A stretch of DNA of 4,823 nt from a virus (Duplodnaviria > Heunggongvirae > Uroviricota > Caudoviricetes): the IMG/VR virus record IMGVR_UViG_2531839486_000010; one strand, given 5' to 3'. A program made the position numbers and the translations under genes. This document shows positions 1-4,823 of this stretch, in pieces. Position 1 is the first letter of the stretch, and every line of letters starts with the position of its first letter. The notes under the pieces are model-generated. The model made no database searches. It saw only the letters and a list, made by a program, of their open reading frames with translations, and was not told the origin of the DNA.

Positions 1-2325
1 AAAAGCAGCCACATGCGCGGCGGTTAAAGTGATATCAGTAGAACCATCAAATGGAACACCGGATATTTTTCTTGCAGTCTGAAGTTTTGTAGCAGTTGCA
101 GCATTACCAGTGGTGTTCTGATTACCCGTAGTGTTTACACCTGGAAGGTTAATATTTGCAGAACCGTCGAAAACAACTCCACCGATAGATCTTGCCGTCT
201 GCAATTTCGTGGCTGTACTTGCATTACCATTCAATGAACCAGTTAATCCACCTGTAACAGACAACGGACCTGAAACTGTTCCTCCGGTTGTTGGCAGTGC
301 TCCAATATCTGATGGTGTAGGTTTCTGATGTGAGCTATACATCGTATAAACAACACCATAGGTAACGCTGGAAGGCTTACTCGCTGAATATGTTGGCGAG
401 GTATAAACAGAAACTGACGCATTTGCAGTACAATCCCAATGGATATTTACACTCGTCGCATAATTGCCAATCTCAACGTAAATATCATATGTATCGCCGG
501 ATGTGTTGATCCAGGCGAAATTCGTTAATCCGACGGCTGTACGCTTCCACAAAGCCCCGGTAATTCCTTTGGGGTTTCCATTGCCTGCTCGTAGAACCAG
601 TTCTGAAATGCCTGCCTGATGTGGGGAACCGACGTTGTAACCAGCGCCACCAATCAATGCGATGTAAACGATGGAACTCGCTTGTGGCATGGTAACCGTA
701 GCCAGTTTGAACCACCCAGCCCCGCCAGAGAAAGACATCGTTACTGAATTTAAAGTACCAATATCTTTCGGCGTTAATGTTATATCCGCAGTCAATGCTT
801 TTCCGTTAACTTTTCGGTTAGATGGCACCCTGCTATTCGCATTGTCATTGGCTGCTTTAACTGCTTTTGGCGTTGCGGCCAGCGATTCACTGGTGCTATC
901 AACAGCACTGCTAAGTTTCACAACACCTTTAGTTGTAAGGCTTGCGTCTTCCATCGCAACTGCACCGGCAATCTCTTCAGCACGATCAGCAGCAGCTTCC
1001 GCACGGGTCGCAGCGGATTCAGCAGCAGTTTTGCTCTGAGATGCTGCCGTCGCACTGCCTGCCGCCTCTGTTGCTTTCGTGGATGCCGTCGTGGCGCTGC
1101 CCTTCGCTGCTGACGCCTGTCTGGTCGCCTCATCTTTTGAAGCAGACGCAGATGATGCCGATGACGCTGCCGAACTGGCGGACGATGCGGCTGCCGTTTT
1201 TGAGGATTCTGCACGGGTTTCCGACGCTTTCGCATTCGTTTCGGATGTCTTCGCTGCGGAAGCAGACCTCGCTGCTGCGCTGGCCTGTACAGCGGCTTCG
1301 CCAGCCTTCGTTGTGGCTGTTGAAGCGGACGATGCAGCACTTTCTGCCGATTTTCCGGCGGCGGTGGCACTGGCTGAGGCCTGCCCGGCACTTGTTGACG
1401 CGGCACTGGCAGACGACGCAGCCGCTGTTTTTGAGCCTGCCGCAGCTGAGGCACTCTGTCCCGCTGCCGTTTCAGAAGACCTGGCGTTCGTCTCGGACGT
1501 CTTTGCCGCCTTCGCGGAATTTCCTGCCGCCGTTGCCGAGGAAGCGGCACTACTGGCGCTTGATGATGCGTTCGTTTCTGATGATTTCGCTGCCTCTTTT
1601 GAGGCCGCCGCATCCCGGGCTGAGGTGGCAGCTTCTGACGCCTTTGTGGTCGCGGCGGATGCAGAAGTGGCTGCTGATTGTTGTGACGCTGCCGCATTCG
1701 TTTCTGACGTTTTCGCGGCACTGGCACTGGTAGCTGCCGCGCTTTTTGAGGACTCTGCAGCGGCAGCACTTTTTGATGCTTCAGTGGCCTTTGTTGATGC
1801 CGTTCCTGCGCTGGAAGTCGCTGACTGAGCCGACGACGCGGCCTGTCCGGCTGACGTGCTGGCTGCGTGTGCTGAGCCTGCAGCATCAGTCGCATGGGTT
1901 GCCGCCTCACGGGCTGATGTGCTGGCATCACTGGCTGACTTCTTCGCGGCTGCCGTGTTCTGTGCCACCACGGACGCGTTACGCGCCACCTCTTCCACCA
2001 TCAGCTCAAAACGGCGCAGTGCCTCCGGACGGGCATCATCCTCAGTCATGGCACCGAGAAAATCATTCAGCGTACCGGGTCGGGAATCTTCATACACGGT
2101 AATGGTCCCGGCATGTGATGGCGGGAATCCCTCCACCAACAGAATAACGCTGTACTGACCGTACTCAACGTCCATGCTGTAACGCCCGGCTTCATCCGGA
2201 TTTTCTGAGGCAAGCGTGTTCACCACCACCGTGTTGCTGTTACGTTTTGCTTTCAGCTGGATTGTGCAGTTCTGTACCGGTTTTCCTGTGCCGTCTTTCA
2301 GTACACCTGAAATCTTTACTGCCAT
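1..2325 (-). CDS. stf: Side tail fiber protein Stf, 3'-partial: N-terminal 775 codons present, C-terminus beyond the window start
   Basis: Hand translation of the minus strand from ATG at 2325..2323 gives MAVKISGVLKDGTGKPVQNCTIQLKAKRNS..., which I recognise as the lambda Stf N-terminus. The frame is open for all 775 codons to position 1, ending ...GVPFDGSTDITLTAAHVAAF. SD-like GGGGTG lies 5 nt upstream of the ATG. Domain order: conserved N-terminal domain (aa 1-~122), Ala/Ser/Thr-rich shaft (aa ~123-450), conserved collar motif KGVVKLSSAVDSTSESLAATPKAVKAA (aa 466-492), non-repetitive domain (aa ~497-690), then two TATKLQTAR tail-fibre repeats. Not in the ORF track because no in-window stop. 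Confidence 0.9.
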   Translation of the reverse strand, partial: MAVKISGVLKDGTGKPVQNCTIQLKAKRNSNTVVVNTLASENPDEAGRYSMDVEYGQYSVILLVEGFPPSHAGTITVYEDSRPGTLNDFLGAMTEDDARPEALRRFELMVEEVARNASVVAQNTAAAKKSASDASTSAREAATHATDAAGSAHAASTSAGQAASSAQSATSSAGTASTKATEASKSAAAAESSKSAAATSASAAKTSETNAAASQQSAATSASAATTKASEAATSARDAAASKEAAKSSETNASSSASSAASSATAAGNSAKAAKTSETNARSSETAAGQSASAAAGSKTAAASSASAASTSAGQASASATAAGKSAESAASSASTATTKAGEAAVQASAAARSASAAKTSETNAKASETRAESSKTAAASSASSAASSASSASASKDEATRQASAAKGSATTASTKATEAAGSATAASQSKTAAESAATRAEAAADRAEEIAGAVAMEDASLTTKGVVKLSSAVDSTSESLAATPKAVKAANDNANSRVPSNRKVNGKALTADITLTPKDIGTLNSVTMSFSGGAGWFKLATVTMPQASSIVYIALIGGAGYNVGSPHQAGISELVLRAGNGNPKGITGALWKRTAVGLTNFAWINTSGDTYDIYVEIGNYATSVNIHWDCTANASVSVYTSPTYSASKPSSVTYGVVYTMYSSHQKPTPSDIGALPTTGGTVSGPLSVTGGLTGSLNGNASTATKLQTARSIGGVVFDGSANINLPGVNTTGNQNTTGNAATATKLQTARKISGVPFDGSTDITLTAAHVAAF
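25..231 (-). repeat. Two tandem ~40-aa phage tail fibre repeats (TATKLQTAR type) within distal stf
   Basis: Stf aa 699-727 (NGNASTATKLQTARSIGGVVFDGSANINL, nt 145..231) and aa 739-767 (TGNAATATKLQTARKISGVPFDGSTDITL, nt 25..111), about 120 nt apart. These resemble the repeat family found in T-even and lambdoid distal tail fibers. Confidence 0.75.
978..1959 (-). repeat. Low-complexity Ala/Ser/Thr-rich coding region (fiber shaft) of stf with recurring K(T/S)SETNA motifs
   Basis: Stf aa ~123-450 are dominated by A, S, T, K and E. The motif KTSETNA/KSSETNA recurs at nt 1693..1713, 1567..1587, 1483..1503 and 1231..1251, and the corresponding plus-strand DNA shows imperfect repeats of ttcgtttc(g/t)ga(c/t)g. 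GC is about 60-65% here. Confidence 0.8.
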
Positions 2326-2336: not shown

Positions 2337-2363
2337 AAAAAAGCCCGCCTGAACCGGCGGGCT
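2337..2363 (-). terminator. Rho-independent terminator between lom and stf
   Basis: Minus-strand RNA reads AGCCCGCC-GGUUCA-GGCGGGCU followed by UUUUU: a perfect 8-bp GC-rich stem (plus-strand 2342-2349 pairing with 2356-2363), a 6-nt loop and a U-tract. It lies 26 nt after the lom stop and immediately upstream of the stf RBS. Confidence 0.8.
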
Positions 2364-2389: not shown

Positions 2390-2989
2390 TCAGAATTTAT
2401 AACCGACACCCACGATGAAACCGTCAGTGCGCCAGTCACCACTGCCGGAGCCTTCATAAGCAATATCAATGGCCACGGATTCGGTCGGGTTAAACTGCAC
2501 GCCAGCTCCCCACGCCAGAGAGGTGTTACTGTGGCGAGCGTCATCACTTCCGGTCAGCACGTCGTGCCTTTTTCCCTTGTTGTCAGTTACGCGGAGATAA
2601 TCCCCGGAAAAAGTCGACACACGGCTGTAAGCCACGCCTGCCATCGCATACGCGCTGAACCATTCATTCACGCGTACAGACGGCCCCGCCATCACGCTGA
2701 ACCAGCGGTTACGCACGGAATCTTCATGCCAGCGGGTATCGCTGTAACGGGTCAGCTGGCGATTCTTGTCTCCTGCATAGCTGAACGACGTCACCATCCC
2801 CAGTGTGTCCGTAAACTCATAACGGTATTTCACGTTAATCCCGTTCAGATCATCACTGCCGGGAACGTTCGTCCGGGCATGAAGATACCCCGCGCTCAGC
2901 GTGGACTGATGTTCAGACGCCCATGCAGGCGCACCGGATACGGCCAGACAAATGGCTGCGGACAAAATGGCGGCATAAAGTTTACGCAT
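2390..2989 (-). CDS. lom: Lom outer membrane protein (Ail/Lom/PagC/OmpX family beta-barrel), lysogenic conversion / virulence-associated
   Basis: 199-aa ORF starting MRKLYAAILSAAICLAVSGAPAWA (typical Sec signal peptide ending AWA) and ending ...GFIVGVGYKF (C-terminal aromatic residue typical of OM beta-barrels). Sequence and position between J and stf match lambda lom as I recall it. SD GAGAGG 5 nt upstream of ATG at 2989; TGA stop at 2390-2392. Confidence 0.93.
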   Translation of the reverse strand: MRKLYAAILSAAICLAVSGAPAWASEHQSTLSAGYLHARTNVPGSDDLNGINVKYRYEFTDTLGMVTSFSYAGDKNRQLTRYSDTRWHEDSVRNRWFSVMAGPSVRVNEWFSAYAMAGVAYSRVSTFSGDYLRVTDNKGKRHDVLTGSDDARHSNTSLAWGAGVQFNPTESVAIDIAYEGSGSGDWRTDGFIVGVGYKF

Positions 2990-3010: not shown

Positions 3011-3038
3011 AATAAAAAAGGCGTCATTTCTGACGCCC
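3011..3038 (-). terminator. Rho-independent terminator between J and lom
   Basis: Minus-strand RNA reads GGCGUCA-GAAA-UGACGCC followed by UUUUUUAUU: a 7-bp GC-rich stem (plus-strand 3020-3026 pairing with 3031-3037), a GAAA tetraloop and a U-tract. It starts 17 nt after the J stop. Confidence 0.75.

Positions 3039-3055: not shown

Positions 3056-4823
<1,768 letters not shown>

Follow-up and report, generated by a model that had tools for sequence, protein, structure and literature searches.

Trimeric phage fibres carry discrete globular modules, or knobs, along their length, which are mobile across fibre classes and mostly without known function (PMC12143355). The module described here resembles several of them in concept: the P-domains of T4 gp34, the D-domains of gp37, the pyocin knob and the RBPseg pseudo-domains (D42). 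For lambda-type side fibres, a proximal coiled coil has been described in Ur-lambda's Stf protein (PMC12617516). A further comparison is offered by WceF of Pantoea stewartii, which consists of a 113-residue head with helices, a 64-residue neck, a β-helix and a short triple β-helix, followed by an eight-stranded jelly-roll sandwich at residues 531-667; in the trimer, the sandwiches are joined by salt bridges (PMC7949094). The C-terminal sandwiches of Acinetobacter APK16_gp47 make hydrophobic contacts in the trimer, according to the literature.

Here we analyse a stretch in the interior of a side tail fibre gene. It is a real coding sequence under purifying selection, with hundreds of homologues, and the prediction for it is an all-β sandwich that folds independently, a mid-fibre module some 150-165 residues long.

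The host gene is a lambda-type side tail fibre

The window is the whole 4,823-nucleotide stretch of DNA taken from the Caudoviricetes record IMGVR_UViG_2531839486_000010. It contains the following features:

3056..4819, minus strand: C-terminal part of J, the central tail fibre gene (ORF and GE3 annotation; context)
2390..2989, minus strand: lom, Ail/Lom outer-membrane protein (ORF, GE3 and phi458 annotation; context)
1..2325, minus strand: stf, side tail fibre gene, 5' 775 codons (translation; PF08400; GE3 identity)
1924..2325, minus strand: N-terminal tail-attachment domain of Stf, aa 1-134 (PF08400 phage_tail_N, E 3.8e-71)
961..1923, minus strand: Ala/Ser/Thr-rich proximal rod, aa 135-455 (composition; aligns to lambda orf-401)
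820..942, minus strand: Phage_fiber_2 motif (TKGVVKLSSAVDSTSESLAATPKAVKAANDNAN...), aa 462-502 (PF03406, E 2.5e-19)
298..792, minus strand: domain as delimited by homology, aa 512-676; the KPTPSDIGA linker at its end is aa 668-676 (core HMM match extent)
343..750, minus strand: confidently predicted β-sandwich core, aa 526-661, about 10 strands (AlphaFold2)
1..228, minus strand: two 40-aa GNxATATKLQTAR...DGS.NI repeats, aa 700-775+, to about 779 (motif positions 700 and 740)

The stf reading frame starts with an ATG at 2325..2323 and remains open for 775 codons, up to the left edge of the window. In Escherichia coli GE3 the full-length protein has 1075 aa (L003:5098-8325, minus strand); in this and other strains, a chromosomal prophage at the ydfJ (Qin) locus is 100% identical to window bases 1-1000. 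The gene order J - lom - stf - tfa is found in the window ORFs and the GE3 annotation (gpJ, Ail/Lom, stf, tfaQ), tfaQ coming after stf in the GE3 prophage. Residues 1-94 of Stf match the N-terminal part of its Ur-lambda counterpart, for which a structure is solved (9e7m, E 4.8e-51). Taken with the PF08400 domain and the identity to GE3 stf with its tfaQ, this match identifies the host protein as a lambda-type side tail fibre.

With 63.6% alanine plus serine and 0.3% hydrophobic residues, the proximal rod is equivalent to the coiled coil of lambda Stf. The Phage_fiber_2 motif that follows it has a match in fibre S of phage Mu (5yvq, residues 105-156). Outside the window, full-length Stf has a Pfam gp37_C domain (aa 786-855), then Collar (aa 866-913), and it possesses a gp37/lambda-type receptor-binding tip: aa 862-1075 align with residues 69-314 of lambda orf-314 at 67% identity, the Pfam matches in the tip region being Collar, Phage_fiber and gp37_C.

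The original prediction placed the domain between a collar motif and tail-fibre repeats. Repeats do lie downstream, matching no Pfam model, but the upstream motif is Phage_fiber_2: the Phage Tail Collar family PF07484 is absent within or next to the flagged region, and Collar occurs only at aa 866-913. These domain positions also exclude the module as a Collar-associated or tip element.

Several further observations concern the locus. Two intrinsic-terminator-like hairpins with T-tails (0.7 expected) are present on the coding strand, at 3019-3038 and 2342-2363 (both minus strand): one after J and before lom, the other after lom and about 10 bases short of the stf start codon region. Overlapping the stf rod in alternative frames or on the opposite strand, further long ORFs (100-337 aa; 918-1931, minus; 942-1733, 1079-1828 and 1746-2158, plus) encode low-complexity products, rich in Arg/Pro/Gln or Ala/Asp. 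They have the look of a side effect of the GCN/AGC-rich repeats and not of genes; the lambda annotation has a comparable antisense 'orf206b' within orf-401. In phage phi458 (OP434518; L001 2111-7343), the annotation splits the homologous stf into several short CDSs called 'hypothetical protein' or 'tail protein'. A Pin-type DNA invertase and an IS1 (InsA/transposase B) are close by, which suggests that the fibre region is disrupted or invertible and the annotation poor.

The flagged stretch is predicted to fold as an all-β sandwich

Positions 256-837 of the window (minus strand) correspond exactly to Stf aa 497-690 and include the peptide quoted in the original prediction, which had described a discrete, non-repetitive domain of normal composition with a hydrophobic pattern suggestive of β structure. 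All of this was borne out. The stretch contains 20.6% alanine plus serine and 30.9% hydrophobic residues, against the values of the rod given above. Homology boundaries of about aa 512-676 follow from how far the core HMM matched across 180 proteins. An AlphaFold2 monomer prediction of aa 487-700, made with an alignment of 48 sequences, yielded an all-β sandwich in all five models (mean pLDDT 77.7, pTM 0.69). Its roughly 10 strands occupy model residues 40-175 (aa 526-661), and ten-residue blocks have a pLDDT of 83-95 over most of the core.

Scans of the domain against Pfam and NCBIfam gave no match; the sole listed Pfam match, to a deaminase family at E 0.14, was dismissed as noise. PDB sequence and profile searches (E<=10) left the module unmatched and found the flanks only, the sequence matches being to Mu S, the S16 distal fibre and the lambda Stf N-terminus.

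A fold search against experimental structures did give a strong match to the module model. The sandwich of WceF (6TGF) has the same fold; next come the depolymerase tailspikes 6C72, 6E1R, 8OQ0 and 5W5P. Judging from the domain sizes and secondary structure of WceF, we infer that the matched segment is its jelly-roll sandwich. In BFVD, sequence homologues in gp37-type fibres come first, then exopolysaccharide (EPS) depolymerases of Erwinia, Pantoea and Xanthomonas phages, which are the phage relatives of WceF.

The fold is common to the module and these tailspikes, whereas no sequence-level homology was detected between them in the PDB searches, and identity to the WceF and depolymerase-tailspike sandwich is 10-12%. 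Their settings differ too. In the tailspikes the sandwich comes after a catalytic right-handed β-helix, near the C-terminus; in Stf there is no β-helix, and the module sits in mid-fibre with 385 residues after it.

The module is widespread and interior

An exhaustive homologue search returned 664 cluster representatives with the threshold set to E<=1e-3; at E<=1e-10, 214 remained. The module is present in the PHROG tail-fibre families 3299, 21552, 6722, 22609 and 11029 (E 3e-129 to 2e-24), and by tblastn 299 deposited phage genomes contain it. Carriers include K3 and many other T-even gp37 proteins, FelixO1-like phages (wV8, HY02, Mushroom), ST64B, a T5-like phage and Acinetobacter T4-like phages. 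Among 5,426 complete E. coli genomes, about 2,000 show a match of some degree to window bases 1-1000. The domain had been flagged as one of unrecognised identity. This holds as far as Pfam, NCBIfam and PDB sequence matches go, but with its representatives, PHROGs and a copy in K3 gp37 it is no orphan. The RBPseg mobile domain D42 was considered as a candidate identity but not adopted; no Vequintavirinae-sized genome was among the tblastn matches listed.

The K3 copy is instructive. At aa 766-915 of the 1243 residues of gp37 lies a homologue of the whole module (E 4.6e-45; about 40-47% identity) with the motifs MPQ, GGxGxN and SGDTYDIY, lacking a Pfam model as in Stf. It is found immediately after Pfam gp37_trimer and some 230 residues ahead of the Peptidase_S74 chaperone. 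The two fibres differ at their ends: K3 gp37 terminates in this chaperone and is used with a gp38 adhesin, whereas Stf has a phage_tail_N anchor and a gp37/lambda-type needle tip with Tfa. In T2/K3-type gp37, FelixO1-like, ST64B and T5-like L-shaped fibres the module is likewise interior, between trimerisation or shaft elements and the tip. The cryo-EM paper on Bas63 (Felixounavirus) does not single out the homologous segment.

Near-complete copies were examined in 91 proteins at least 400 aa long, and in none of them does the module come last at the C-terminus, the only apparent exception being a truncated sequence. In the others at least 74 residues follow it (median 329).

It is also optional, since the Stf of phage lambda and gp34-gp38 of T4 have no copy. 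In lambda Stf, a six-frame search found none (E >= 0.15), and the module is absent from T4 gp34-gp38; the expectation of finding it in T4 gp37 or lambda Stf was tested and ruled out. Lambda orf-401 aligns up to Stf aa 499 and the alignment to orf-314 resumes at aa 862; therefore aa ~500-861 form an extra block relative to lambda. It begins with the module and continues with the two 40-aa repeats and the small domain matching gp37_C; window positions 1-822 hold part of it.

Near-identical copies join different anchors and tips

The homologue search proposed with the original prediction did reveal other fibre contexts, with various anchors and tips. In IMG/VR, 80 loci have module copies 93-100% identical to that of the window, in fibres of 490-1432 aa. 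Three types of N-terminal anchor precede these near-identical copies: lambda-type (MAVKISG...), MWYREGTITF... and P2 H-like (MSTTTRKFKTVITDTG...). They are joined to several unrelated C-termini, among them a gp37/lambda needle (...IAFNYIVRLA) and a chaperone-type end (...HHIQQLTKRVEELE...). More distant homologues are followed by Gp34_trimer, Gp10_C, Collar plus S_tail_recep_bd, or fibre repeats.

Junctions coincide with both edges of the module. Homology to PhiR29_1 ends at window position 839, and P0122 departs just after aa ~696, a few residues past the KPTPSDIGALP linker. The module is flanked by the linkers LTPKDIGT upstream and KPTPSDIGA downstream, and of the 91 long proteins, 45 have a KPTxxDhGA-type linker behind the domain. 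Mapping breakpoints across the 80 close loci by the ends of BLAST HSPs proved too coarse, as Ala/Ser rods align promiscuously: right ends fell at aa ~760-779, at ~860-879 or at full length, not at the module edge.

The linker pattern [FY]x..KPTxxD[IV]GA also recurs between globular modules of very long fibres, many times in P0190 (2682 aa), and may serve generally as a boundary between modules and a joint for recombination. Two proteins contain the module twice. In P0121 (791 aa), a block of ~330 aa comprising fibre repeats, the module and a Gp34_trimer-like segment is in near-exact tandem duplication; the two copies in P0165 (1422 aa) have diverged.

A near-identical module with much of the rod is found on ~100-kb elements (the IMG/VR contigs L017, L046, L065, L068 and L073; 100-114 kb) and in CMS-2020a and Cyrano, phages of about 108 kb. 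The ~100-kb elements may be phage-plasmid-like; if so, fibre modules would be exchanged between lambdoid prophages and a very different type of phage. The MWYREGTITF fibres come from the same 80-locus set.

The conserved part of the module is under purifying selection

We estimated dN/dS by pooled Nei-Gojobori counts from the distinct alleles of the 80-locus set; the estimates are indicative only, because non-independent pairs are pooled and recombination is ignored.

Domain, aa 497-690: dN/dS 0.17
Conserved part, aa 526-612: dN/dS 0.15
Variable part, aa 613-668: dN/dS 0.59, noisy because dS is only 0.05
N-terminal anchor, aa 1-134: dN/dS 0.10
gp37-type receptor-binding tip: dN/dS 0.39

Across genera, 29-40% identity is kept. 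In a non-redundant profile, the motifs MPQ, GGxGxN, V.R..N..P.G and NTSGDxYDIY are invariant or near-invariant, and all fall within aa 530-612; the last third (aa 613-668) is variable.

Discussion

We propose, with moderate confidence, that the module serves as a structural knob, or registration node, in the trimer and is transferred between fibres as a cassette. The proposal starts from the independent fold, the interior homology and position, the optionality, the mosaic distribution and the purifying selection described above. Three copies of the jelly-roll-like sandwich, one per chain, would most likely pack round the fibre axis as a knob. Such a knob could lock the register of the three chains right after the switch from the α-helical Ala/Ser rod to a β-structured distal shaft. 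It could also act as a rigid spacer, lengthening the fibre and pushing the receptor-binding tip outward. Being optional, it would recombine as a cassette among fibres with differing virion anchors and tips, with receptor specificity residing in the distal Collar plus HxH needle and not in the module. The trimeric packing and the stabilising or spacer role are suggested by analogy with the sandwich that comes after the β-helix in WceF and the depolymerase tailspikes.

Two points sit less well with a structural node. The variable aa 613-668, with their elevated dN/dS, could be an exposed, adapting surface. Moreover, with the fibres of lambda and T4 functioning without the module, it is not obvious that it meets a purely structural need.

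A different possibility is that of a lectin-like secondary receptor-binding module. Beta-sandwiches of this size frequently bind glycans, and carbohydrate-binding modules and galectins are two-sheet sandwiches of similar size. The module would then bind a surface glycan along the shaft (LPS core, O-antigen, ECA or capsule), its low-affinity pre-binding supplementing an OmpC-type tip. The fold itself, the company it keeps with glycan-processing proteins and the variable last third leave room for this reading. However, the most conserved elements are structural Gly/Pro/Asn motifs, kept across phages whose hosts have unrelated surface glycans, and the overall dN/dS is near that of the anchor. The same allele is common to fibres with different tips, and the literature on the WceF and Acinetobacter sandwiches attributes no sugar binding to them; the high ratio of the variable part is the noisy one. 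We therefore regard a lectin as unlikely. A more specific version, in which a mid-fibre lectin binds a common enterobacterial glycan through its variable C-terminal sheet and belongs to the same evolutionary unit as the depolymerase-tailspike sandwich, is somewhat less likely again. If true, it would give lambda-type Stf, T2/K3 gp37, FelixO1-like and T5-like fibres a common second attachment that does not depend on the tip.

The original prediction had suggested a receptor-binding knob, against which clear homology to a known structural fibre segment would count. Such homology exists, for instance to the interior of K3 gp37. The receptor-binding knob is unsupported; overall, the original interpretation is partly supported.

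The mosaic distribution could also mean that the module is chiefly a recombination joint, persisting as homology, through its own sequence and the flanking linkers, for swaps of anchor and tip, with little other role. Near-identical copies linking different anchors and tips, the junctions exactly at the module edges in PhiR29_1 and P0122 and the KPTxxDhGA linker behind the domain in half of the long proteins agree with this, and RBPseg proposes the same for mobile domains (PMC12143355). Yet the low dN/dS of the conserved part and the identity kept across genera argue that the fold itself is constrained, which makes this an improbable sole explanation.

We give less weight still to a docking platform, a knob to which a further protein (for instance a tail fibre assembly chaperone, or else an accessory fibre or branch) would attach, likened to the interior pseudo-domains of branched fibre networks. 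RBPseg reports mobile interior pseudo-domains at the contacts that fibres make with other baseplate fibres in Bas49 and Bas54 (PMC12143355), and a tfa gene comes after stf. But lambda-type side fibres are unbranched by cryo-ET (PMC12617516), Tfa proteins act at the C-terminal tip, the genes next to the module are unrelated across its sipho-, myo- and T5-like settings, and an unsystematic look found no co-varying partner gene. Docking and recombination are minor readings, partly compatible with a structural node. That the stretch is no separate domain, only continued fibrous shaft (triple β-helix or coiled coil) or else an enzyme domain, is hardly credible, even though it lies inside a fibre and trimeric fibres modelled as monomers can mislead.

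Modular fibre knobs are a known class, and the module is a new member of it that has no name yet and is widely shared. Since it is swappable and interior in phage fibres, its lack of a name is an annotation gap and not a surprise. Our understanding of how the fibre recognises the host is unchanged, unless the lectin reading is true. Defining the module would improve the annotation of tail fibre genes: it is common and present in fibres as well studied as K3 gp37, yet has no Pfam or NCBIfam model and no sequence match to a solved structure. Its edges would mark natural cassette boundaries for the engineering of chimeric fibres. Finally, it connects the shafts of fibres, in structural terms, with the sandwich at the C-terminus of depolymerase tailspikes.
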